DNA of 64,000 nt from Acetobacteraceae bacterium (GTDB lineage Bacteria > Pseudomonadota > Alphaproteobacteria > Acetobacterales > Acetobacteraceae), in contig JANXMB010000143.1 in NCBI GenBank assembly GCA_025354865.1, forward strand, positions 5,499 to 69,498, read 5' to 3'. Made by a program: the position numbers and the translations under genes. Below, piece after piece: positions 11,912 to 26,572 of this stretch. The notes under the pieces were generated by a model. It was not told the origin of the DNA, did not search any database, and saw only the letters and a list, made by a program, of their open reading frames with translations. How positions within the stretch are numbered: the first letter of the stretch is position 1; the number at the start of each line of letters is the position of its first letter.

Positions 11912-13318
11912 ATGACTTCCGACGAATTGGGCTTCATGCCAGCCACCGAACTGACGGAACTGATACGGACCAAGAAGATTTCGCCGGTCGAGTATATGCG
12001 CGCGCTGCTGGAGCGGATCGAAAAATTGGAGCCGAAGATCAACGCGTTCGCGCATCTGGCGGCCGACCGCGCCATGGACGCCGCCCGAGCAGCCGAGGCC
12101 GCAACGATGTCCGGCGCTCGGATCGGACGCTTGCACGGGGTGCCGACGACCATCAAAGATCTGGTCATTACCAAGGACATGCCGACGCAAAGCGGCAGCG
12201 CGATCTTCGCCGGCCACCAACCGACCGAGGACTCGCCGGTCGTCCCCCGCCTGCAGAACGAGGGCGCGATCGTCCTGGGCAAAACCACGACGTCCGAATT
12301 CGGCTGGACCGGCGTGTCGCATTCCCCGCTGACCGGGATCACTCATAACCCCTGGAAGTTCGGCTATAACGCCGGCGCATCCAGCGCGGGGGCCGGTGCG
12401 GCGGCAGCAGCGGGCTACGGACCGTTGCACCAAGGCAGCGACGGGGCGGGATCGATCCGCATGCCGAGCCATTTTTGCGGTGTATTCGGTATCAAACCGA
12501 CATTCGGTCGGGTGCCGTATTATCCTGTCAGCGTGGGGGACATGACCTCCCACATGGGGCCGATGTCGCGCACCGTCGCCGATAGCGCCCTGATGTTGGA
12601 GGTTATGGCGGGTCCGCACCCCCTCGACTACACCACCCTGGAAGCCGGTCCCGCACATTACCTCGCGCGGCTGCACGAAGGGATAAAGGGCAAGCGCATC
12701 GCCTATAGTCCCGATCTGGGCCATGCCCGCGTCGATCCGGAGGTCGCGGCGCTGGTGCGCAAAGCCGCCGAGCGGTTCAGCGATTTGGGCGCGACGGTGG
12801 AGGAGGTGAAGACCCCGTGGGCGGCGCCGGGACCGGAATTGGTGCGGTTTTTCTGGTCGGCGCATCTGACCCGGCTGAAGCCTTATCTGGCGGAATGGCG
12901 ATCGCGCATGGATCCCGGTCTGGTGGCCTGTATCGAAGCGTCCGATAACGTATCGATTGCGGAATACCAGGCCGCCCGCGAGCGCAAGATGCCGTATATC
13001 GCCTCGATCCATGCGTGGTTCGAGAATTGGGATTTCCTGCTGACGCCGTCGGTGTCCGTTGCCGCCTTCCCGGCCGAGAAACTGATGCCCGACCATTGGC
13101 CGCAACACGCCTGGGATTGGGTGAGTTGGGCGGAATTTTCCTACCCGTTCAACATGTCCTGGAACCCTGCTGCCAGCGTGCCGTGCGGTTTCACCGCTGC
13201 GGGCCTGCCGGTCGGTCTGCAAATCGTCGGCAAGCGGTTCGACGATCTGGGGGTGCTGCAAGCCTCCGCCGCGTTCGAGCAGGCGCAGCCCTGGGCGGAC
13301 AAGCGGCCGGCCTTGTGA
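11912..13318 (+). CDS. amidase (amidase-signature family, GatA-like)
   Basis: GASSAGAGAAAAAGYGPLHQGSDGAGSIRMPS amidase-signature segment. GGAGAAG SD upstream of the ATG at 11912. Confidence 0.9.
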   Translation: MTSDELGFMPATELTELIRTKKISPVEYMRALLERIEKLEPKINAFAHLAADRAMDAARAAEAATMSGARIGRLHGVPTTIKDLVITKDMPTQSGSAIFAGHQPTEDSPVVPRLQNEGAIVLGKTTTSEFGWTGVSHSPLTGITHNPWKFGYNAGASSAGAGAAAAAGYGPLHQGSDGAGSIRMPSHFCGVFGIKPTFGRVPYYPVSVGDMTSHMGPMSRTVADSALMLEVMAGPHPLDYTTLEAGPAHYLARLHEGIKGKRIAYSPDLGHARVDPEVAALVRKAAERFSDLGATVEEVKTPWAAPGPELVRFFWSAHLTRLKPYLAEWRSRMDPGLVACIEASDNVSIAEYQAARERKMPYIASIHAWFENWDFLLTPSVSVAAFPAEKLMPDHWPQHAWDWVSWAEFSYPFNMSWNPAASVPCGFTAAGLPVGLQIVGKRFDDLGVLQASAAFEQAQPWADKRPAL

Positions 13319-13366
13319 TATCGGAATGCGGGGTTCGTGCCCCGAACCGAACGAATGGAGGAACTC

Positions 13367-13876
13367 ATGGCCTATTCCATCTACGACGCCACCGCGCCGC
13401 TCTGCGCCCAACAACTCACCGCGTTTCTGGGCGTTTGCGACAAAGCTGCCGCGCATTGCGCCGAGAAGAAAATCGACGAAGCCTGGCTGCTGTCGGACCG
13501 CCTATATGCGGACATGTTCCCGCTGGGTCGGCAGATCCGCCAACTCACGGATTTCGCGCGCAATACGGTGGGGCGTCTCGCCGGCGTTGCCGGTCCCGAT
13601 TTCCCGGCCGCCGATCCCACCAGCTTCGCCGAGGCGAAAGATCGCGTGCAGAAGTCGCTGGATTTCGTGAACAGCATCGGCCGCGCGCAACTCGACGGCA
13701 CCGAGGACAAGCAAGTGTCCTGGACCGCCGGCACGCGGGAGATGTCGTTCAAGGGCGACGCTTACGTGCGCTGGTTCGCCCTGCCGAACTTCTATTTCTT
13801 CTGCACCACCGCCTATAACATCCTGCGCCTTCGCGGCGTGGAAGTGGGCAAGCGGGACTTCCTCGGCCCGCAATAA
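13367..13876 (+). CDS. DUF1993-family protein
   Basis: ORF 13337..13876 trimmed to the ATG at 13367 (GGAGGA upstream). MAYSIYDATAPLCAQQL...LYADMFPLGRQIRQ matches my recollection of DUF1993 proteins. Confidence 0.7.
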   Translation: MAYSIYDATAPLCAQQLTAFLGVCDKAAAHCAEKKIDEAWLLSDRLYADMFPLGRQIRQLTDFARNTVGRLAGVAGPDFPAADPTSFAEAKDRVQKSLDFVNSIGRAQLDGTEDKQVSWTAGTREMSFKGDAYVRWFALPNFYFFCTTAYNILRLRGVEVGKRDFLGPQ

Positions 13877-14086
13877 TACCGATCGGCCGAACGGCCGAAC
13901 TGTATGCGCGCAGGGTTGGCGTGGCGGCTGCGCGCGAAACCAATACGACTCCGATCGGCCGAACGGCGGTCGGAGGTTCGGTTGGCTGATATAAGGCCGC
14001 CGCAATCGCCGCTTGGCGCGGGTCGGTCCGCATTGCTAAGGTGTGGACCGATTCGCGCCTCGTCCGGGCATTGGGGATTTGACACG

Positions 14087-15211
14087 ATGAAGCTGAAGGC
14101 CGACCGCGCCACGCTCCTCAAAGCGCTGGCGCATGTCCAGAGCGTGGTGGAACGGCGCAATACCATCCCCATTCTCGCCAATGTCATGATCGCGGTGCGC
14201 GACGGCAAATTGTCGTTGACCGCCACCGATATGGAAATCGCCGTGGTCGAGGACGTGGCCGCCAGCAGCAGCCGCAACGGCGCCTGCACCGCGCCGGCCG
14301 CGACGCTGTACGAAATCGTACGCAAGCTGCCCGACGGGGCAGAGGTCGAGTTGGACCATCCCGGCGGCGACGCCCAGTTGGCACTGCGGGCCGGGCGCTA
14401 CGACACCAAATTGGTGGTGCTGCCGGTCGACGATTTCCCCTCGATGACGGCCGGTGTGCTGCCGCACCGCTTCAACCTGTCGGCGCAAACGCTGCGGGCC
14501 TTGATCGATCGCACCCGCTTCGCCGTCAGCACCGAAGAAACCCGCTATTACCTCAACGGCATTTACATTCATGCCGCCGATAGCGACGGCACCAAAGTCC
14601 TGCGCGCCGTCGCCACCGACGGCCATCGCCTCGCTCGGGTCGAAGAGCCGCTGCCGGAAGGCGCCGACACCATGCCGGGCGTTATCGTGCCACGGAAAAC
14701 GGTGAACGAGTTGCGCAAGCTGCTCGACGAGGTCAACGGCAATGTCGAAATCGCGCTGTCGGATACCCGCATCCAGTTCCGCGTCGATCAGATCCTGCTG
14801 ACCAGCAAACTCATCGACGGGACCTTCCCGGAATACGAACGCGTGATTCCGCGCGGCAACGACAAGGTGCTGCGGGTCGGCAAGAAGGATTTCGCCGACG
14901 CTGTCGCCCGCGTCGCCGCGATTTCCTCCGAACGGTCCCGCCCGGTGAAGCTATCGCTAGCGCGCGATCTGCTGACGCTCTCGGCCGCCAGCCCCGATCA
15001 GGGCACTGCGACCGAGGAACTCGACGCCGATCGGGTCAAATACGACTCCGGTCCGTTGGAAATCGGCTTCCAGGCGCGGTATCTGAACGATATCACCGAC
15101 CAAATCGGCGAAATGGTGGAATTCCGCTTCTCCGACGGTTCGGCCCCCACGGTGGTGCAGGACGCCGCCGATGCCACCGCGCTTTACGTGCTGATGCCCA
15201 TGCGGGTGTGA
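14087..15211 (+). CDS. dnaN: DNA polymerase III beta sliding clamp
   Basis: ORF 13904..15211 trimmed to the ATG at 14087. MKLKADRATLLKALAHVQSVVERRNTIPILANVMI... is a canonical DnaN N-terminus. Length is 374 aa. Confidence 0.95.
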   Translation: MKLKADRATLLKALAHVQSVVERRNTIPILANVMIAVRDGKLSLTATDMEIAVVEDVAASSSRNGACTAPAATLYEIVRKLPDGAEVELDHPGGDAQLALRAGRYDTKLVVLPVDDFPSMTAGVLPHRFNLSAQTLRALIDRTRFAVSTEETRYYLNGIYIHAADSDGTKVLRAVATDGHRLARVEEPLPEGADTMPGVIVPRKTVNELRKLLDEVNGNVEIALSDTRIQFRVDQILLTSKLIDGTFPEYERVIPRGNDKVLRVGKKDFADAVARVAAISSERSRPVKLSLARDLLTLSAASPDQGTATEELDADRVKYDSGPLEIGFQARYLNDITDQIGEMVEFRFSDGSAPTVVQDAADATALYVLMPMRV

Positions 15212-15245
15212 TCCCGGCCCGCCGAAGGGTCGGTCCGTTACTGGA

Positions 15246-15671
15246 TCACCCCTTCGGCCGGACGGCTTGGGACGACAGCGGCAACGCCAAACGAGCCAAG
15301 GTGCGATAGCCGGCGTCTGTCGGATGCAAACGGTCGTCGCCGACATAGGGACTCGTATCGATTGTTCGGTCGCCAAATCGCGCAGCCACCGCGCCGATAG
15401 CCCGGCGGGCGGCTTCGTGGCCGCTCGGCAGCAACCATACGACCGATCGAGCCGTGACCGACGAACGCACGCGCACGAGATTTTCAATGGTGCGGGCCGA
15501 ATCGCCGTCGTTTACCCCCAAGCTGATCACAACCCGATCCGCGCGGGCCGGCGACAGACGTTCCACGATGAAGCGGGTAGAGGTGATCCCCACCTCCGCC
15601 TCGACCTGGCATTCCGGCAATTTTTGCCCGACACCGACGGCGAGGCTGTCGCCCAACGATAGACAAAGCAC
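15246..15671 (-). CDS. minimal SGNH/GDSL-fold hydrolase-like protein, leaderless (paralog of 19468..20040)
   Basis: ORF 15246..15704(-) trimmed to the GTG at 15669-15671 (GGAGGG 8 nt upstream). (M)LCLSLGDSLAVGVGQKLPEC... carries GDS (block I), GVND (block III) and DRLHP (block V) within about 140 aa. No signal peptide. Confidence 0.6.
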   Translation of the reverse strand: MLCLSLGDSLAVGVGQKLPECQVEAEVGITSTRFIVERLSPARADRVVISLGVNDGDSARTIENLVRVRSSVTARSVVWLLPSGHEAARRAIGAVAARFGDRTIDTSPYVGDDRLHPTDAGYRTLARLALPLSSQAVRPKG

Positions 15672-15729
15672 GTTTTGTGCCCTCCGTTTTGGAAGGCACA
15701 CCATTTAATGCAGAATGGTAAATAAAGTC

Positions 15730-15960
15730 TTAACGCGGGTCGAAAAACTTCGCGGCCTCGGTGTTTTTCACGCCCTCGTGCAGCAGCTTGTAGGGAAGAT
15801 CGAGGCCGGTTCGCGCGCCCGCCGCCTGCACGATCCCCGCCGCATCGGGAAACCCGGCGGTGTCCAGCCAGGATGCCAAGGGCACAGAGCCGAGCAGGGC
15901 TGCGACGGCGCTGCATAGCAGGAATTGGAGTGTCAGGCCGATCGGGGTCGTGCGTGCCAT
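15730..15960 (-). CDS. small (76-aa) putative membrane-anchored protein
   Basis: C-terminal part of track ORF 15730..16581(-). ATG at 15958-15960, 41 nt after the MBOAT stop. MARTTPIGLTLQFLLCSAVAALLGSVPLASWL... has one N-terminal hydrophobic helix, then a polar tail. Confidence 0.4.
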   Translation of the reverse strand: MARTTPIGLTLQFLLCSAVAALLGSVPLASWLDTAGFPDAAGIVQAAGARTGLDLPYKLLHEGVKNTEAAKFFDPR

Positions 15961-16001
15961 TGTCTTGCTCTCTCGGGCGTCGAAGCGACGCGCATCGCGG
16001 C

Positions 16002-17420
16002 CTAAAACTGGAAATAGATGAAGGGTGCCACGCCGTCCGGCCCCAACGCGTCGATCGCGACGATGCCCACGCCGGCCACAACCGCCCAGGCCCAGTTGGG
16101 CCAAGACCCGGCATAGCCCGCCAAACGCGCCGCCAATTGGCGCGGCACCGCGTGCAAAACCAGCCCCAGCACCAGCAGCCCCGCCGTAAGCGGCGCGATT
16201 TGCAGCGTCGCGTCCGCCGCCGGGGCTTGCGTCAGATAAACCACCACGGTGTCGAAACTGGCCGCGCGGAACAGCACCCAACTGAGGCAGACGATGTGGA
16301 ACACCAGCAGCAGCCGCAGCGCTCGACCCCAGCGGGATTGGGCGAATCGGCCCAGCGCCGTCCCCGACCATCGATCGAGCCAGCGCTCGACGACAAGCCC
16401 GATGCCGTGCAACGCGCCCCAGACAAGGAATTTCAACGCCGCGCCGTGCCAGATGCCCCCCAGCAGCATGGTCAGCATCAGATTGCGCGCGGTGAACAGG
16501 CGCCCACCGCGATTGCCGCCGAGCGGCCGGTAGAGATAATCGCGCAGCCAGGAGGAGAGGGAGATGTGCCAGCGCTGCCAAAATTCCCGCAAGCTACTTG
16601 CTCGGTATGGCTGATCGAAATTGAGCGGAAACCGATAGCCCAGCAACGCCGCCAGCCCGATGGCAATGTCGGTGTAGGCCGAGAAATCGCAGTAAATCTG
16701 CACCGCATACCCGTACGCCGCCAAAAGCCGATCCAGCACGCCATAGCGGCTCGGGTCGAAAAACACCGGATCGACCAGGCCGGTGGCGATGTAATTCGCG
16801 ATCGCGACCTTCTTGAACAATCCGCCCAGGATCAACAACACCGGTTCGGCGAGCGGGATCGTCGCCGGCACCGGTTGCGCCAATTGCGGCAGGAAAAACG
16901 ACGACCGCACGATGGGTCCGGCCACCAACTGCGGGAAAAACGACAGATAGAGCAGGATGTCGTCCAGCCGCCGGCACACCGCGACCTCGCCGCGATAGAT
17001 ATCCACCAGGTACGAAATGCCATGAAAGGTGAAAAAGGAAATGCCGACCGGCAGAATGACCTCGATCAACGGCAGTTCGACGCCGGTCTGGGCGGCAAGC
17101 AGGACCCGATTCGCGCCCTCGATCAGGAAATCGTCGTATTTGAAGAACGCCAGCAACAGCAGATGCGCGGCGACCGTCCCGCCCACCACCGCCCGGCGCG
17201 CCCGATCGGATGCCATCGCCGCGATGCCCAGACCGCCAAGGTATGTCAGCACCGAACTGCCGGCGAGCAGGAAGCAAAAGCGCCAGTTCCATTGCGCGTA
17301 GAACCAGTAGCTGGCGACGATCAGGACAAGGTTGCGCGCCCGCCCGTGGCCGGCCAGCGGGGCGACCAGCGCGAGGACGACGCCGAAGAAAATCAGGAAA
17401 TCGAGGGTCGGAAACAGCAT
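16002..17420 (-). CDS. MBOAT-family membrane O-acyltransferase (AlgI/PatA/DltB-like)
   Basis: ORF 16002..17696(-) trimmed to the ATG at 17418-17420 (MLFPTLDFLIFF...). Polytopic, with ISFFTFHGISYLVD and FWQRWHISLSSWLRDYLY segments containing the conserved MBOAT His. The start overlaps the upstream stop (TGATG). Confidence 0.9.
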   Translation of the reverse strand: MLFPTLDFLIFFGVVLALVAPLAGHGRARNLVLIVASYWFYAQWNWRFCFLLAGSSVLTYLGGLGIAAMASDRARRAVVGGTVAAHLLLLAFFKYDDFLIEGANRVLLAAQTGVELPLIEVILPVGISFFTFHGISYLVDIYRGEVAVCRRLDDILLYLSFFPQLVAGPIVRSSFFLPQLAQPVPATIPLAEPVLLILGGLFKKVAIANYIATGLVDPVFFDPSRYGVLDRLLAAYGYAVQIYCDFSAYTDIAIGLAALLGYRFPLNFDQPYRASSLREFWQRWHISLSSWLRDYLYRPLGGNRGGRLFTARNLMLTMLLGGIWHGAALKFLVWGALHGIGLVVERWLDRWSGTALGRFAQSRWGRALRLLLVFHIVCLSWVLFRAASFDTVVVYLTQAPAADATLQIAPLTAGLLVLGLVLHAVPRQLAARLAGYAGSWPNWAWAVVAGVGIVAIDALGPDGVAPFIYFQF

Positions 17421-18667
17421 CAGGACGTCGGCCGCAGCGCTTTGTATGCCGCGTAACCGTCCATCAGCACCTGAAACAGCGCCTCCGCCGTCGTCCGATA
17501 CCCCGACCGCAGAAGATGCACCCGGTCCGGCGCCATCGTCGGCGGGTGCTGCGATGCCCAGCGGTTCGCGCTGCACGGCCCGCCCATCGCTGCCTGCCAA
17601 TCCCAGAAAAACAGTTTCTCGCGCGCCGCGACTTCGCGCTGAACGTCGCGCACGACGGAGAGTGGCCGCGGTTCGTCCCAGCGCGGATCGCCGCACATTG
17701 TGCGTCCCTTGAAACCCCGCGCGGTGTGTTTGGCGCTGTCGGGCGGCCCCACCACGACGATCGCCGCCATCGGAGCGGCTTCCCGCAGGATGCGCACGCT
17801 TTGGGCGAACCGTTCGCGGTAATCGGCGGCGGTGGTGCCGTTGTCGAATGCCTCATTCGTGCCGAACGCCAGCAGGATCGCACTGGGCGCGATATGGGCG
17901 AGTTCCTGACGCAGCGTGGCCGGGTCCATCCGCCCGACGATATCGACGGTGGCGCCGATGGTGCCCAGATTGGCCAGGATCGTGCCCGGCCCACCGCGCG
18001 TGGCGGTCCATGACAGCATATCCACCGGGGCATCGCCGACCGCGACGATCTCGACCTCCCCGCCGCTGGCAGCGCGGGGCAGGGTCAGCCACCGCGCCTC
18101 GGTCGTCGGGGAGTCGGTGCTCAGCCGCTTCCGCCAACCGGTCGCCGTCGCGATATCGATCGAGCCACCGCCGGGTTGGTGAAGGAATTCGAGCGTGACG
18201 TCGGCCATATCGGTCGGATCGGGGGCCGAGAGTGTCATGATCGCGCCCGCGCCGCCGTGTTGGCGCACCGCAGCGATTCCAACCGGCCCTGCCGCTCGGC
18301 CCGCCCGTTCCGCGACCCAACGACCCGACGTCGCCGCGACGCGATCCGGGCGGTAGTAGCGAAACGGCACGCCGGGTTGCAGCACGCCGCGCCCGGCATC
18401 GCCGAAGCGGGCCTGAAACTGCTCCCGCAGGCGACCGCTGAAACTGTCGTTCGCCGAGTGGCTATCGCCGACTTGCAAGACGACGACCGGCGCCGTCCGT
18501 GTGCGGGATTCCAAGCCGCTTAAGGCGCGATAGAGCGGCAGCAACGGCCCGGCCGGTCCCAGGCGGGCGGCGATTTCGGCATCGGGGGCTTCACGGTGCG
18601 TCGCACAGGCCGACAAAGCGAGGCAGACGAGCAACAGCAGACGCGCCGAAAATGCAGGGGACAGCAT
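17420..18667 (-). CDS. SGNH-fold lipoprotein with inserted domain (Ape1/PatB-like O-acetyl esterase or transferase candidate)
   Basis: ORF 17420..18712(-) trimmed to the ATG at 18665-18667. Lipobox LALSAC. VGDSH (block I), LGTIG (II), FGTNE (III) and DRVHL (V). About 170 residues are inserted between blocks I and II. Confidence 0.8.
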   Translation of the reverse strand: MLSPAFSARLLLLVCLALSACATHREAPDAEIAARLGPAGPLLPLYRALSGLESRTRTAPVVVLQVGDSHSANDSFSGRLREQFQARFGDAGRGVLQPGVPFRYYRPDRVAATSGRWVAERAGRAAGPVGIAAVRQHGGAGAIMTLSAPDPTDMADVTLEFLHQPGGGSIDIATATGWRKRLSTDSPTTEARWLTLPRAASGGEVEIVAVGDAPVDMLSWTATRGGPGTILANLGTIGATVDIVGRMDPATLRQELAHIAPSAILLAFGTNEAFDNGTTAADYRERFAQSVRILREAAPMAAIVVVGPPDSAKHTARGFKGRTMCGDPRWDEPRPLSVVRDVQREVAAREKLFFWDWQAAMGGPCSANRWASQHPPTMAPDRVHLLRSGYRTTAEALFQVLMDGYAAYKALRPTS

Positions 18668-18744
18668 GGGACTTCCGATTGCTCCTGGCGCGCGATGGGT
18701 GTAGATTATCACTGGTTTTTCCCTCTGTCATCGGATGGCTTTGC

Positions 18745-19467
18745 GTGAACATCGCGCGTCGTAACGCGCTGCTGGTTGCAGCGGCATGCTCTGTGTTCGG
18801 CTTCCCCTCCGCCGACGCCGCCGAATCCCCGAAACGTGTGCTGGTCGTCGGCGACTCCCAAGCGCAAGGGCTGGCCGGCGGGTTGCAACGCCAATTGCTG
18901 CGCGATCGCAGCTGGCGGGTGATCGACCAGTCGCATATCTCGACCGGGCTGTATTCCACCACCCGCTTCGACTGGCCGGCCTCCGCGTCGGGGATTGCCG
19001 ACAAAGAACGCGGGGCCGTCGCCGTGGTGATGTTCGGCGCCAACGACCGCCCGCCCATCCGATCCAACGGTGCCGTCGATCCACGCCGGGCGGAAACCTT
19101 CGCCGCGAACTACTGTGCGCATATCCGAGCGGTGGCGGCGGGATTGAAACAGGCCTGCCCGGAGGTGGTTTGGGTCGGGCATCCAATCGTGCGGGATCCG
19201 CTCTACGCCGAAGACATGGCCTTTCTGAACCAACTCTATGAGGCCGAGGCCGTGGCCTGCGGTGCCCGCTGGTTCCCCTCCTGGCCCTTGTTCACCGACA
19301 AAGCCGGGGCCTATGTCGCGCACGGCAAGGCCGTCGGCGGCCAAACCGAGCGGCTGCGGGCAGACGATGGCGTGCATCTGACCGCCGCCGGCTACGATGT
19401 GCTGGCGAATGCGCTGCTGCCCGATCTGCGGTTTGCCCTCGCGGGTCCATTGACGCCGCCGACCTGA
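18745..19467 (+). CDS. secreted SGNH-fold protein (DUF459-like)
   Basis: ORF 18499..19467 trimmed to the in-frame GTG at 18745, giving the signal peptide (M)NIARRNALLVAAACSVFGFPSADA. VVGDSQ, FGAND and DGVHL blocks. Divergent from the MBOAT operon across a 77-bp spacer. Confidence 0.7.
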   Translation: MNIARRNALLVAAACSVFGFPSADAAESPKRVLVVGDSQAQGLAGGLQRQLLRDRSWRVIDQSHISTGLYSTTRFDWPASASGIADKERGAVAVVMFGANDRPPIRSNGAVDPRRAETFAANYCAHIRAVAAGLKQACPEVVWVGHPIVRDPLYAEDMAFLNQLYEAEAVACGARWFPSWPLFTDKAGAYVAHGKAVGGQTERLRADDGVHLTAAGYDVLANALLPDLRFALAGPLTPPT

Positions 19468-20040
19468 ATGATCCCCTGCCTGATCCTGGGCGACAGTCTT
19501 GCCGTTGGCGTCGGTCAGGCTCGGCCCGAGTGTTCGACGATCGCGGAAGTCGGCATCAACTCCACCCGCTATCTGCAAACCCTGCATGGCGCCCGTCATG
19601 CCCGGACGATCGTGATCAGCCTGGGGGTGAACGATTCGCTGGATATGGAAACCCTGGCCAACCTGCGGCAGCTTCGGCGCGGGGTGTCGGCGGATAGGGT
19701 CTATTGGCTGTTGCCCGGCATCCACCCAATCGCCCGCGATGCCGTGCGCACCGTTGCTCGGGAATATCGCGATCGCATCCTGGAGGTCGCGCCTTTGACC
19801 GGCGCGGATCGCATCCATCCGGATCGGGCCGGCTATGCGCAGTTGGCGGCGATGACCCGCGGGAGCGGCGGATCGGTCTACGGCGCCTTTGCGGAGCGGA
19901 CGCTGGCGTATCGGGATTTCCCGTTGCCGCTGCCGCCGCCTGTGCCAGGAGTACCGGGGGTCAAAGTCTGGGCTGGGCCGTATAGCTTGAACGGGCTGCC
20001 GGTGCCGCCGACGCCGCCGGCAAAACCGCCGCCGCGTTGA
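19468..20040 (+). CDS. minimal SGNH/GDSL-fold protein with Pro-rich C-terminal tail, leaderless (paralog of 15246..15671)
   Basis: The ATG at 19468 abuts the upstream TGA. MIPCLILGDSLAVGVGQARPEC...ISLGVND...DRIHP, then the tail PLPLPPPVPGVPG...PVPPTPPAKPPPR. Confidence 0.6.
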   Translation: MIPCLILGDSLAVGVGQARPECSTIAEVGINSTRYLQTLHGARHARTIVISLGVNDSLDMETLANLRQLRRGVSADRVYWLLPGIHPIARDAVRTVAREYRDRILEVAPLTGADRIHPDRAGYAQLAAMTRGSGGSVYGAFAERTLAYRDFPLPLPPPVPGVPGVKVWAGPYSLNGLPVPPTPPAKPPPR

Positions 20041-21676
20041 TCGTCAAAGTCGGGTACTGGCCGGCCGCCAATGCATCGAGGCTGGGTGCGGGCAAGCGCA
20101 GCGCCACCGCATAACGCCAGGATGCCGCCAGCGCGTCGAACAGGAAGGCGCGCAGCACCGGGCTGGGCACCGCTTCGATGAACATCAGCGGATCGCCGCC
20201 GTCGTTCACGCCCGCGACCCAACGCTTCATCGCGCCCTGCCCCTGGCCGTACGCGGCCAGCAACCGCAGCAGATCGCCGTGGATGTCGGGGTCCTTCGCC
20301 AGGACCTGGATGTAGCGCTGCCCGACGGCGAGGTTGGTGCCGGGTTCGGCCAGCCGGCCCATCCGGTCGGCACTGAGCGCCCCGATCCCGCGCGCGGTAT
20401 TCGGCATGATCTGCATCAACCCGCGCGCACCCAAACTGGATACCAAATCGGATCGGAAATTCGATTCGTGCTGAACGATACCATATACCAATGTTGGATC
20501 GATTGTGAAACCGCCATCGGGTTTCAATTTCGGCGGCATACGGCGATCTTCGGCGACGACGGCGGTGCGATATCCGACCCGCAAACTCAGCGCGAAATGC
20601 GGCATTTCGGCCGCTTCGGCAACGACAATCAACAGGTCCTTGAGCGTCTGTTCCGTTTCCACATCGAGCGCCAAAGCCCGCAGCTCGTCTTCGGCCCTTG
20701 CGTATTCGCCAACCTGCAACAGCGCGAAAACCCGGCGGGCTCGGGGGATTGCCATCAGCCGTTGAAAGTCGATCGCGCCGAGCGTTCGATCCGATGTCGG
20801 ATTGGCATCGAATGCGTGGATAAGGCCCAGGCGGCGGCGTGCGATCCGGCCGTAAAATGTATCCTGCGCGAGTGCCGTCCGACGCAACCAGAGGGAGGTT
20901 TCGGTGGGCTGCCCGGCCGCTTCGCTGACCCTCGCCATCCAAAAAGCGGCGGCAGATCGTTGCGTATCGTTTTGTGCTGTTTCGTATGCAGAATTGAATA
21001 ATATTGCTGCATCGGTCGCATTGTTTTGCCGCCACGCGGCGAGTCCGCCGGCCAGCAGATCGTCCGAAATCCGCCCATTCGCCGGCGCATGCACCAATGC
21101 TCGGCTTGCCGCAATCGCGTCGGCATCGCGATTTTGCGCGAAAAGTCCGCGCACGCCGCCGGGTGCGGCCACAATGCGCCGCTTTGCAGGCGGGGCATTT
21201 CCACTGACGGCATCATTGTTTCGCTCGGTATCGGCGGCTGGCTTTAAGCGCCGCAAGCGGGCAGCAATGGCCGCGCTGTCGGCTTGATCGCCGAAACGAC
21301 GCAGCCAGGACGACAGTTGTTCGGCCGTAGGATGGAAATTCGGATTGAGATAGCGTGCCGCCAGCACAGGTCCTGCCATCCAATCGGCCACGACATAGGT
21401 CAACTCTCGATCGGCATCGGCGATTGCGCCATTATTTTGCAGATAGAGAATATGCTTCACCAAAGCCACGTCGCTGGGCGACAATGGTCGTGGAAAATCG
21501 ATCCGATCGCTACCTGGCGCAACCATTCGAGGTATCGCCATGGCGGTTTCATCGTTCGTTTCAGCAACTCGCTGTGCAAAGGCACCGGATACGCACGCGG
21601 ATACCATAAAAACGGTACAGAATACGTATGTGCCAATGTTGGCGAGCCAGCTGTCGATGCGCTGTCTCATTCGCAT
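19961..21676 (-). CDS. slt: soluble lytic murein transglycosylase (Slt70 family)
   Basis: Signal peptide, a long superhelical N-terminal region, and a C-terminal SLT domain with QHESNFRSDLVSSLGARGLMQIMPNTA (catalytic Glu). Confidence 0.9.
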   Translation of the reverse strand: MRMRQRIDSWLANIGTYVFCTVFMVSACVSGAFAQRVAETNDETAMAIPRMVAPGSDRIDFPRPLSPSDVALVKHILYLQNNGAIADADRELTYVVADWMAGPVLAARYLNPNFHPTAEQLSSWLRRFGDQADSAAIAARLRRLKPAADTERNNDAVSGNAPPAKRRIVAAPGGVRGLFAQNRDADAIAASRALVHAPANGRISDDLLAGGLAAWRQNNATDAAILFNSAYETAQNDTQRSAAAFWMARVSEAAGQPTETSLWLRRTALAQDTFYGRIARRRLGLIHAFDANPTSDRTLGAIDFQRLMAIPRARRVFALLQVGEYARAEDELRALALDVETEQTLKDLLIVVAEAAEMPHFALSLRVGYRTAVVAEDRRMPPKLKPDGGFTIDPTLVYGIVQHESNFRSDLVSSLGARGLMQIMPNTARGIGALSADRMGRLAEPGTNLAVGQRYIQVLAKDPDIHGDLLRLLAAYGQGQGAMKRWVAGVNDGGDPLMFIEAVPSPVLRAFLFDALAASWRYAVALRLPAPSLDALAAGQYPTLTINAAAVLPAASAAPAARSSYTAQPRL

Positions 21677-22020
21677 TCAGCGTTTCTACACACCGATATT
21701 CGATATTGCAAGTGTTCCGCGAAACTCCCGGAATTCGGTACCTCCGCACGAACATTGAGGCAAATTCATGGCGACATTAAGTCGCTGCATATTCCGTTAA
21801 TTTACCGTTTATATTCAGTTCGGTAAGATAATTCGATACGGAAAAAGCGATTTCGATACGTATCCAGATGCGGAAAAATTGTTGAAGCAGTTGGCGTTAG
21901 CCGATCCGGCCCGCTTTTCGGCAACACAACGCCGGCATGCCTCGCCACCCACGCCCTCGAACGATCCGGCCGTGCCGAATGCGGCTTCCCGCCCGGACGC
22001 AACGCTGGCATCTTCCGGCG

Positions 22021-23142
22021 GTGCCACGGCTTCAGCGCCTTACCCTCACCGATTTCCGCAGCTACGCCGGCTTGACCTGGCGTCCCAACGCCGCGATCGC
22101 CGTGTTCGTGGGGCCGAATGGCAGCGGCAAGACCAATTTATTGGAAGCAGCGTCGTTTTTGGTTCCCGGTCGCGGCCTGCGAGGCGCGCGCAACGCCGAT
22201 CTGCCGCGACACGGCGGCGCGGGCGGCTGGGCGGTGGCGGGGCGCTTCGAATCGCCGGACGGGGCATACGACATCGGCACCGGCACCGCGCCCGACGGGC
22301 CGCCGGACCGCCGCATTTTCCGCCTGGACGGCGCCGCGCCGCGCAGTCAGGCCGAAATCGCCCGCCGCATCGCCGCCGTCTGGCTGACGCCGCAGATGGA
22401 TCGGCTGTTCCAGGAAGGGCTGTCCGGCCGCCGCCGGTTCCTCGACCGGCTGGTCTGGGCGCTGGAACCCGGCCACGCCCGGGAAATGGCCGCGCACGAC
22501 GCCGCGATGGGCAGCCGCAACCGCCTGCTGACCGAGGGGCGGCAAGACCGAGCCTGGCTGGCTGGGTTGGAGGATGCGATGGCGCGGCATGCGGTGGCGG
22601 CGACGGCGGCGCGATCCGCTTTGGTCGCGCGCCTCAACGCGGCCCTGGCCAGCGGCGTCGCCGGGGCGTTTCCGGTCGCCCGAATCGCGCTGGCCTGCCC
22701 GATTGCCGAACGGTTGGCGGCAGATCCGGCCCTGGCGGTGGAGGATTGGCTGCGGGCTTCGCTGGAGGCCAATCGCGGCCGCGATGCCGCTGCCCACGCT
22801 GCCGCGCTGGGGGCGCATCGCAGCGACATGGTGCTGACCGACGCGGTCGCCGGCACCCCGGCCGCGCTGGCCAGCACCGGCGAGCAAAAAGCGCTGCTGA
22901 TCGGCGTCATCCTGGGCCATGCCGTACTGATCGCCGAAACCCGCGGTTTTCCGCCAATCCTGCTGCTGGACGAGCCAGCCGTACACCTCGATCCCCGCCG
23001 GCGGGAGGCGTTGTTCGCGGCGCTGATCCGCCTGCAGGCGCAGACGCTGATGACCGGCACCGACATCGAGACCTTCGCCCCCCTGTCGGGGCGCGCCGAA
23101 ATGCTGCGGACCGGCGGGGGCGCGCTGTACCCCCTGTCCTAA
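22021..23142 (+). CDS. recF: DNA replication and repair protein RecF
   Basis: ORF 21937..23142. Walker A GPNGSGKTNLLEA. The GTG at 22021 gives the family-typical N-terminus (M)PRLQRLTLTDFRSY. The in-frame ATGs at 21937 and 21979 would add an R/P-rich extension, so the start is uncertain. Confidence 0.9.
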   Translation: MPRLQRLTLTDFRSYAGLTWRPNAAIAVFVGPNGSGKTNLLEAASFLVPGRGLRGARNADLPRHGGAGGWAVAGRFESPDGAYDIGTGTAPDGPPDRRIFRLDGAAPRSQAEIARRIAAVWLTPQMDRLFQEGLSGRRRFLDRLVWALEPGHAREMAAHDAAMGSRNRLLTEGRQDRAWLAGLEDAMARHAVAATAARSALVARLNAALASGVAGAFPVARIALACPIAERLAADPALAVEDWLRASLEANRGRDAAAHAAALGAHRSDMVLTDAVAGTPAALASTGEQKALLIGVILGHAVLIAETRGFPPILLLDEPAVHLDPRRREALFAALIRLQAQTLMTGTDIETFAPLSGRAEMLRTGGGALYPLS

Positions 23143-23165: not shown

Positions 23166-25637
<2,472 letters not shown>

Positions 25638-25711: not shown

Positions 25712-26572
25712 ATGCCGACACTGGATGCGTTGAACGCCGCCCCATTGGATGTGTTCGTGGCCGCATTGGACGGCGTGTTCGAACACGCGCCGTGGGTTGC
25801 CGCCAAAGCCGCTGCCGGCCGGCCCTTCCCAACCGTGGCCGCGTTGCACGATGCGCTGATGGCGCAGGTGCGGACGGCCTCGGCAGAAACCCTGGTGGCA
25901 TTCCTGTGCGGGCACCCCGAGCTTTCGCCGAAAGTGTTGGCCGATCCGGGGTTGACGGCGGCGTCGCGCGACGAACAAGGCGGGTTGGGCCTGGATAGCC
26001 TGGGCGACGATCTGCGCCGGTTCGAGGATTGCAACGCCGAATACCGAGCGAAATTCGGCTTCCCGTTCATCGTCTGCGTCCGCCGCCTGACGCCGCCTTT
26101 CGTCCAACGCGCCATGGGCCGCCGTCTGGCGAGCACCCCGGAAACCGAACGCGAAACCGCCATCGCGGAAATCGGTTACATCTCGCGACTGCGCCTCAAG
26201 GATCGGGTCGAGGGTCCGGGCATGCCGAAAACCGACGGGCATTTATCCACCCATGTGCTGGACACCGCGCGCGGCTGCCCGGCGGCGGGGGTGCGGATCG
26301 AATTGTTCCGCGAAGGCGCGCAGATCGCGGAAGGCCGCACCAACCGCGACGGCCGCACCGAAGCCCCGCTGATCGAGGGCGAGCCCCTACGCATCGGGCG
26401 CTACGAATTGCGTTTCCACGTCGCAGATTATTTCGCCAACTGGCCGGCAGCCGCCGATCCGCCGTGGTACGATATCATCCCGATTCGTTTCGCCATCGCC
26501 GAACCGGAAGGCCACTACCACACGCCGCTGCTGCTGGGCGCATGGACATACACGACGTATCGCGGCAGTTGA
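25712..26572 (+). CDS. fused OHCU decarboxylase / 5-hydroxyisourate hydrolase
   Basis: The N-terminal half has GHPELS and FGFPFIVCV (OHCU decarboxylase-like). The C-terminal ~116 aa, from about 26222, has HLSTHVLD...HYHTPLLLGAWTYTTYRGS with the HIUase terminal YRGS. Single uninterrupted frame. Confidence 0.8.
   Translation: MPTLDALNAAPLDVFVAALDGVFEHAPWVAAKAAAGRPFPTVAALHDALMAQVRTASAETLVAFLCGHPELSPKVLADPGLTAASRDEQGGLGLDSLGDDLRRFEDCNAEYRAKFGFPFIVCVRRLTPPFVQRAMGRRLASTPETERETAIAEIGYISRLRLKDRVEGPGMPKTDGHLSTHVLDTARGCPAAGVRIELFREGAQIAEGRTNRDGRTEAPLIEGEPLRIGRYELRFHVADYFANWPAAADPPWYDIIPIRFAIAEPEGHYHTPLLLGAWTYTTYRGS

Follow-up and report, generated by a model that had tools for sequence, protein, structure and literature searches.

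Seven genes between dnaN and recF in an Acetobacteraceae bacterium: a probable peptidoglycan O-acetylation cluster with a membrane microprotein and two small SGNH proteins

The adjacency of dnaN and recF is widely conserved. A 64,000-nucleotide stretch of DNA from an Acetobacteraceae bacterium (contig JANXMB010000143.1, positions 5,499 to 69,498; the whole stretch is called the window below) has seven genes between the two, and the locus raises the question of what these genes encode and how they came to lie there. The initial annotation of the window regarded them as a module for peptidoglycan O-acetylation and de-O-acetylation with extra SGNH paralogues, inserted as an island at a replication locus. 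The first part of this description is borne out by the analysis reported here and the second part has to be given up. The interval is probably a chromosomal PatA/PatB/Ape1 peptidoglycan O-acetylation (OAP) cluster that is conserved within a clade, and not a recent insertion. It departs from the standard OAP system in four respects, namely a truncated secreted PatB, a membrane microprotein, two mini-SGNH proteins and the clade-specific position between dnaN and recF.

Both autolysins and resistance to lysozyme are governed by peptidoglycan O-acetylation, and work on PatA and PatB as drug targets has been confined almost wholly to Neisseria and Campylobacter. The widespread alphaproteobacterial version is built differently, having a shortened, secreted PatB and a conserved, unannotated membrane microprotein encoded beside patA, and one lineage has gained two small putative esterases whose family otherwise resides on phages and plasmids. 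Earlier publications have described the core system, its occurrence in Alphaproteobacteria and the linkage of a transglycosylase gene to it (PMC1199599; PMC13101528; bioRxiv 10.64898/2026.07.21.739787). The microprotein after patA, the two mini-SGNH paralogues and the truncated PatB with a signal peptide resembling those of twin-arginine translocation (Tat) are undescribed. The main value of the locus lies in the microprotein and in the phage-related mini-SGNH family.

The core enzymes and their probable substrate

The interval extends from the end of dnaN at 15211 to the opening of the recF reading frame at 21937. A map of the open reading frames, together with family scans, gave the same seven genes and coordinates as the initial annotation. 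The genes and their flanks are as follows.

14087-15211, plus strand: dnaN, sliding clamp, the left flank; the reading frame opens at 13904 and the likely start is MKLKADR at 14087
15246-15704, minus strand: miniA, 152 residues, an SGNH core of about 130 residues without a signal peptide
15730-15960, minus strand: the membrane microprotein, 76 residues, with a transmembrane helix
16002-17420, minus strand: the PatA-type MBOAT protein, 472 residues; Pfam MBOAT, E 5e-28
17420-18667, minus strand: the Ape1-type SGNH lipoprotein, 415 residues, with the lipobox LSAC and Cys21
18668-18744: the intergenic region between the divergent ape1 and patB, with conserved non-coding blocks CGATTGCTCCT and TGGTTTTTYCCTCTGTCATYGGRTGG
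18745-19467, plus strand: the PatB-type DUF459 protein, 240 residues, GTG start; Pfam DUF459, E 3e-55
19468-20040, plus strand: miniB, the mini-SGNH paralogue, 190 residues, without a signal peptide
19961-21676, minus strand: Slt, a soluble lytic transglycosylase of the LtgA/Slt70 type, 571 residues; Pfam SLT, E 1e-19
21937-23142, plus strand: recF, the right flank; the true start is probably at 21979-22021
23202-25637: gyrB, next after recF

The order and orientation of all seven genes are kept in related genomes, showing that they are real genes and not chance reading frames. Several are tightly coupled. The stop codon of ape1 overlaps the start codon of the MBOAT gene (TGATG at 17418-17422), as first annotated, and at the junction of patB and miniB (...ACC TGA ATG ATC...) the miniB ATG follows immediately upon the TGA of the DUF459 gene. 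All four SGNH genes match Pfam Lipase_GDSL_2, miniB below the gathering score.

The MBOAT protein has the fold of its family and the invariant, catalytic histidine, His285, which lies within WHISLSSWLRDYLY (the WHISL motif). Its C-terminus reads FIYFQF, an FXYXXF hexapeptide containing Tyr469. The ending is FIYFQF, FIYFRF or FIYYQF in 61 of 63 MBOAT orthologues. In C. jejuni PatA the tyrosine of this hexapeptide was shown to be auto-acetylated from acetyl-CoA and then to serve PatB (PMC12148441).

Residues 62-401 of the Ape1-type lipoprotein align in one stretch to residues 55-368 of Neisseria meningitidis Ape1 (PDB 4K3U, E 1e-33), so that both the SGNH domain and the inserted CBM35-like domain are covered. 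The catalytic set is formed by GDSH at 67-70 and DRVH at 381-384, and across 32 orthologues neither GDSH nor DxxH varies.

The DUF459 protein matches the PatB structures 8TLB, 7TRR and 7TJB (C. jejuni and N. gonorrhoeae) in the PDB with E values of 1e-12 to 1e-14. It has GDS at 36-38, Ser66 in block II, Asn100, and DGVH at 208-211, and hence the Ser-His-Asp arrangement of an SGNH enzyme. Block II is of the transferase type, in which the usual glycine is replaced by serine or asparagine, as in PatB and OatA; Ser66 pairs with Asn165 in the alignment to C. jejuni PatB. The protein begins with a 25-residue signal peptide of the twin-arginine type (ARRNALL...ADA), and about 10 residues separate it from the start of the SGNH domain. 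Such a signal, RR[DNKR][AL]L[LF], is found in 10 of 10 PatB proteins from modules that contain mini-SGNH genes. It was rejected as a marker of these modules, because several PatB proteins of Acetobacteraceae without mini-SGNH neighbours also have the arginine pair.

The SLT domain of the transglycosylase occupies residues 390-492, with the catalytic Glu404 in HESN. Its closest solved structure is Neisseria LtgA, followed by Pseudomonas aeruginosa Slt and Escherichia coli Slt70. The alignments to LtgA and to P. aeruginosa Slt span residues 241-534 and thus extend past the catalytic domain, as expected of a family 1A enzyme, which has a long helical region before that domain; the score lies under the cut-off of the NCBIfam Slt70 equivalog. 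The signal peptide (21578-21676) contains a lipobox-like VSAC, and Slt may be a lipoprotein like LtgA.

These core identities, established by alignments and motifs, are the reason for reading the interval as a PatA/PatB/Ape1 cluster with a linked transglycosylase. From the observed gene order, homologies, motifs and conserved synteny we infer the chemistry, its substrate and what the accessory proteins do, as follows. The MBOAT protein PatA would draw on cytoplasmic acetyl-CoA, His285 acetylating Tyr469 of the shuttle hexapeptide FIYFQF at the periplasmic C-terminus. The exported PatB would take the acetyl group onto Ser38 and pass it to the C6 hydroxyl of N-acetylmuramic acid. The lipoprotein Ape1 would remove the group again, whereupon lytic transglycosylases, including the adjacent Slt, would be able to cleave the glycan. 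The accessory genes, that is, the microprotein gene after patA and the two mini-SGNH genes with a hydrolase-type glycine in block II, are carried along with this core.

The nearest characterized systems are the patA-patB-ape1 clusters of N. gonorrhoeae, N. meningitidis and C. jejuni (PMC12148441, PMC5077204, PMC6174289). The catalytic MBOAT histidine, the C-terminal acetyl-tyrosine shuttle, the DUF459/PatB transferase with a block II residue other than glycine, the full-length alignment of Ape1 and the tight coupling of the genes are common to those clusters and the window. However, there are three genes in those clusters and seven here; ape1 lies upstream of patA and patB is divergent; a separate membrane microprotein follows patA; and two mini-SGNH proteins without signal peptides are added. 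PatB itself differs in having only 240 residues and a cleavable twin-arginine-type signal in place of the N-terminal region of about 100 residues.

Among Alphaproteobacteria, OAP clusters were listed in 2005 for Zymomonas, Bradyrhizobium and Agrobacterium (PMC1199599). The peptidoglycan of Zymomonas is O-acetylated as has been demonstrated by experiment, and its patA mutant was treated by the authors as deficient in O-acetylation (PMC13101528); deletion of patA reportedly abolishes the modification. A transglycosylase gene adjoins the Zymomonas pat operon (bioRxiv 10.64898/2026.07.21.739787), as in the window. By annotation the Zymomonas mobilis neighbour is SleB, whereas the one here is of the LtgA/Slt70 type; Zymomonas is outside the set of loci examined below. 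No mini-SGNH genes or microprotein have been reported for the Z. mobilis pat operon. In N. meningitidis, Ape1 depends on the transglycosylase LtgA to reach optimal activity (PMC7083599). The window Slt is closest to LtgA among solved structures and its gene is near ape1, although the partnership is here suggested by gene linkage only.

Several points weigh against this assignment. The O-acetylation chemistry of this organism is deduced from homology, and an MBOAT protein's sequence and that of an SGNH protein do not alone fix the acceptor polymer. PatB matches the NCBIfam PatB equivalog at only 72 bits against a cut-off of 580, and covers only positions 135-336 of the 347 in the profile. The transmembrane helix and two amphipathic helices (about 100-113 residues) by which the N-terminus of canonical PatB contacts PatA are missing. 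Among the accessory proteins, the microprotein has an all-helical AlphaFold2 model of low confidence (predicted local distance difference test, pLDDT, 64). The mini-SGNH fold matches generic SGNH esterases only, with TM-scores of 0.5-0.67 in Foldseek searches of the PDB and BFVD. A signal peptide is found in 0 of 29 mini-SGNH orthologues, and a periplasmic role would need an unproven export route.

MBOAT-SGNH pairs are known to serve several polymers, and the module might acetylate an envelope polymer other than peptidoglycan, such as exopolysaccharide, cellulose or lipopolysaccharide, in the manner of AlgI/J/F/X or WssFGHI. The low PatB score would fit this, as would the fact that some of the relatives bearing the cluster make cellulose (Komagataeibacter, L012-L016; loci in other genomes are cited by L numbers). 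Such a substrate is nevertheless very unlikely. The esterase is a full-length homologue of Ape1; the matches of the transferase are to PatB/DUF459, family and PDB searches with it having given none of the AlgX/AlgJ type; and the cluster has a linked lytic transglycosylase both here and in Komagataeibacter. For about 13 kb upstream and about 19 kb downstream there are no synthase, glycosyltransferase or export genes. The scan covered 20 genes of the neighbourhood, lying from 1.8 to 40.7 kb in the window, and gave no glycosyltransferase or polysaccharide-export genes, in agreement with the earlier statement that no polysaccharide synthase is nearby. The surroundings of the module in L081, L083, L087 and L088 likewise contain no synthase, glycosyltransferase or export genes. 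Relatives carrying the same genes together with an exopolysaccharide pathway had been named at the outset as evidence that would tell against peptidoglycan; the genes do recur in relatives between dnaN and recF, but no polysaccharide pathway lies beside them.

The position between dnaN and recF

A profile scan with Ape1, using one genome per species, gave at least 449 relatives, and the best 79 loci were examined. With few exceptions these belong to the Alphaproteobacteria (Acetobacteraceae, Komagataeibacter, Stellaceae, Caulobacteraceae, Tagaea, Reyranella and others). The triad of PatB, Ape1 and MBOAT was detected in nearly all of the 79 by tblastn with the window proteins, and the core is therefore routine in Alphaproteobacteria.

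The exact layout of the window is repeated in L002, L005 and L035: miniA, the microprotein, MBOAT and ape1 follow dnaN, then come the divergent patB and miniB, and then Slt, recF and gyrB. Ape1 is 61-78% identical in these loci, and dnaN of L002 and L005 is 95-96% identical to that of the window. In the more distant L088, where the dnaN orthologue matches Pfam DNA_pol3_beta, recF and dnaN enclose the module, Slt is missing, and a gene for a PEP-CTERM-domain protein (13248-13907 of that locus) is inserted between the microprotein gene and miniA. Other loci keep one flank, recF in L006-L008 and dnaN in L009. In L087 (8313-11227) only recF, Slt and ape1 are left, patA, patB and both mini-SGNH genes having been lost. 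The six-gene module occurs at other sites in L003, L004 and L083. Slt is absent from some otherwise identical modules (L083, L088).

The wide conservation of the dnaN-recF pair could suggest that a mobile genomic island was recently acquired and inserted between the two by chance, as the initial annotation implied in speaking of an island. The otherwise common occurrence of the mini-SGNH family on phages and plasmid-like contigs would agree with this, as would the somewhat lower GC content at third codon positions of Slt and miniA (0.67 and 0.71, compared with 0.83 in the flanks). Yet neither an integrase or transposase nor a tRNA or flanking repeats were seen at the interval. The third-position GC content of the seven genes taken together (0.67-0.82) is close to that of the flanks, and their overall GC content is 0.61-0.69 against 0.65 for the window. 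Moreover, the layout recurs where Ape1 has diverged to 50-78% identity (L002, L005, L035, L088), and the variants with one flank (L006-L009, L087) point to an old arrangement that was later rearranged. A recent insertion is thus most improbable.

The arrangement is old and typical of the clade, and was later rearranged, because the layout is shared with diverged relatives of the Acetobacteraceae clade and the derived variants keep one flank. These comparisons suggest that the module was already at the dnaN-recF site in the common ancestor and is monophyletic with its host clade. The position is a clade marker without evident functional meaning.

The microprotein and the mini-SGNH proteins

The 76-residue microprotein consists of a transmembrane helix, a PLAxW motif and a helical region with GLDxPY. 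Orthologues of 73-106 residues are encoded at the same position in all mini-SGNH modules. A hidden Markov model was built from ten orthologues, and a homologue was counted if it started no more than 450 nt downstream of the MBOAT gene on the same strand. By this measure a homologue directly follows the MBOAT gene in 41 of the 60 loci with enough sequence. The loci bearing it (L012, L015-L017, L019-L027, L032-L034, L036-L039, L044, L049, L061, L064, L068, L069, L077 and others) are mostly alphaproteobacterial; among them are Komagataeibacter, Stellaceae, Tagaea and Brevundimonas, together with a Chromatiaceae genome and Azonexus of the Betaproteobacteria. The protein is without a model in Pfam or NCBIfam, and its database matches are all 'hypothetical'. 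The small transmembrane reading frame, first remarked on as part of this locus, is thus a real gene here; however, it is not specific to the locus, being a general companion of alphaproteobacterial patA that is not confined to the dnaN-recF site.

The microprotein probably serves PatA and PatB as a subunit or adaptor embedded in the membrane. Since PatB of the window is without the N-terminal docking region of about 100 residues, the microprotein might supply a membrane module comparable to the missing part. A search of 28 microprotein sequences against NCBIfam, with E values up to 10, gave no match that touched the PatB model, so that a split of PatB has no support from sequence. If the microprotein is truly a subunit, the description of MBOAT-SGNH acetylation as the work of two proteins falls short for a large class of bacteria.

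A parallel exists in the D-alanylation of teichoic acids, where DltB, DltX and DltD also combine an MBOAT protein, a small single-pass membrane protein and an SGNH-type transferase that are encoded together. There the FXYXXF shuttle is on DltX, whereas here it is on the MBOAT protein itself. The microprotein was rejected as a DltX analogue for this reason, and because its only near-invariant tyrosine, that of the PY motif, is lost in distant orthologues. The mechanistic study of these enzymes describes MBOAT-SGNH pathways of this kind as having no DltX-like microprotein (PMC12148441).

The two mini-SGNH proteins are 52% identical to each other. The AlphaFold2 model of miniA is a minimal SGNH fold (pLDDT 92.5), with GDS at 18-20, Gly39 in block II, Asn65 in block III and DxxH at 124-127. 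Blocks I (GDS), II (Gly), III (GxND) and V (DxxH) are invariant in 29 mini-SGNH sequences, which are therefore SGNH proteins. Searches of NCBIfam and of PDB sequences with mini-SGNH gave no matches, and in Pfam only Lipase_GDSL_2 was found, at or below the gathering score. An assignment to PatB or Ape1 by structure was rejected, the Foldseek searches having given generic SGNH proteins only. Neither specific similarity to the Ape and PatB families nor periplasmic targeting was found.

In OAP modules one mini-SGNH copy always lies right after patB, with stop and start codons abutting or overlapping; in L018 both copies do so. The miniB and Slt genes converge, and their 3' ends share 80 nt (19961-20040). 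Overlaps of this type, of about 32-68 nt, also occur in L002, L005 and L081. The miniB orthologues have a conserved C-terminal tail, AYRDF...(V/I)W(A/R/S)GPxxLNG, which is also kept in genomes without an adjacent Slt; the overlap is for this reason taken as real coding sequence, and both reading frames appear to be real.

An exhaustive profile search for the mini-SGNH family gave 1161 cluster representatives, 789 of them at E<=1e-10. Among 195 members looked at, 170 lack a signal peptide, and in 16 an N-terminal extension contains a hydrophobic segment, mostly a signal peptide, a transmembrane anchor or an AT3 acyltransferase with a transmembrane helix. These extensions indicate that the domain is extracytoplasmic in at least some relatives. 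Two of the proteins, P0260 and P0279 (Teichococcus oryzae WP_149812611.1), both from Acetobacteraceae, are fusions of AT3, a transmembrane helix and mini-SGNH, in which a basic loop before the last transmembrane helix predicts a periplasmic mini-SGNH domain. They resemble in this the AT3-SGNH acyltransferases OatA and OafA/B, whereas the mini-SGNH proteins of the window are free-standing, without a signal peptide and with a hydrolase-type glycine in block II. The N-termini of two other fusions, P0225 and P0302, looked by eye like lysozyme and peptidoglycan-binding domains; they were not confirmed by Pfam or PDB searches and were not used.

Phages and plasmids are the main carriers of this family of proteins of about 130 residues. 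It is found on at least 176 viral contigs of IMG/VR. In the 80 viral loci inspected (L092-L171) the neighbours include AhpC in 37, an AhpD/CMD protein in 33 and a cell-wall hydrolase of the SleB/CwlJ type in 12. A search with miniA against annotated phage genomes gave two weak protein matches only. On two contigs resembling plasmids or integrative and conjugative elements (L084 and L085, with P0210 and P0167), mini-SGNH proteins without a signal peptide have a RP-C replication protein, a RES toxin and a DsbC_N-like protein as neighbours; a second protein of 134 residues is encoded nearby in L085.

To judge from these relationships, miniA and miniB are probably auxiliary O-acetyl esterases recruited from the phage- and plasmid-borne family. 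They may act in the cytoplasm or may reach the periplasm, for instance as Tat hitchhikers on PatB. They, and possibly the microprotein too, could also be unrelated passengers, such as phage-derived cytoplasmic esterases with no part in peptidoglycan acetylation. The lack of signal peptides, the phage and plasmid contexts of most family members, where AhpC and AhpD rather than OAP genes are the neighbours, and the fact that most alphaproteobacterial OAP clusters do without mini-SGNH would all agree with this. On the other hand, both paralogues are kept in every context of the six-gene module (L002-L009, L018, L035, L081, L083, L088), the coupling to patB is invariable, the members with their own signal peptide and the AT3 fusions place the domain outside the cytoplasm, and a cell-wall hydrolase is the partner in a number of the phage loci. 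A passenger status is therefore doubtful, though it carries some weight, and an auxiliary role in the O-acetylation cycle is preferred.

A more specific scheme, which is speculative and on balance improbable, is that alphaproteobacterial PatAB is a three-part system in which the microprotein replaces the docking region of PatB and, in this lineage, the Tat-exported PatB carries miniB along as a hitchhiker. The tail AYRDF...NIWxGPxNLNG may play a part in this, and miniA might travel the same way. If so, a second de-O-acetylase, tethered to PatB, would be added to the cycle.

Intergenic and flanking sequences

The two blocks in the region between ape1 and patB are unchanged across four genomes and without 3-nt periodicity. 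They are probably a shared promoter or operator. In a scan of 15000-22200 the counts of promoters and terminators were not above those of shuffled sequence. The whole window gave no matches in an Rfam scan, and its proteins gave nothing significant with PADLOC (defence systems) or PHROGs (phage families).

Upstream of recF, in an AT-rich stretch (GC about 0.45), a direct repeat AAGATAATTCGATACG / AAGCGATTTCGATACG with a spacing of 20 nt is situated at 21825-21860, and a third TTCGATA occurs nearby at about 21698. These repeats may be an operator. Between the convergent dnaN and miniA an inverted repeat, GCCGAAGGG ... CCCTTCGGC, extends over 15221-15258 across the stop codon of miniA, and may act as a bidirectional terminator that has no T-run. 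The dnaA gene is not upstream of dnaN; 11912-13876 is occupied by genes for an amidase (PF01425) and a DUF1993 protein. Right after gyrB, at 25712-26572, lies a gene for a fused OHCU decarboxylase-HIUase (transthyretin-like) of the urate degradation pathway.

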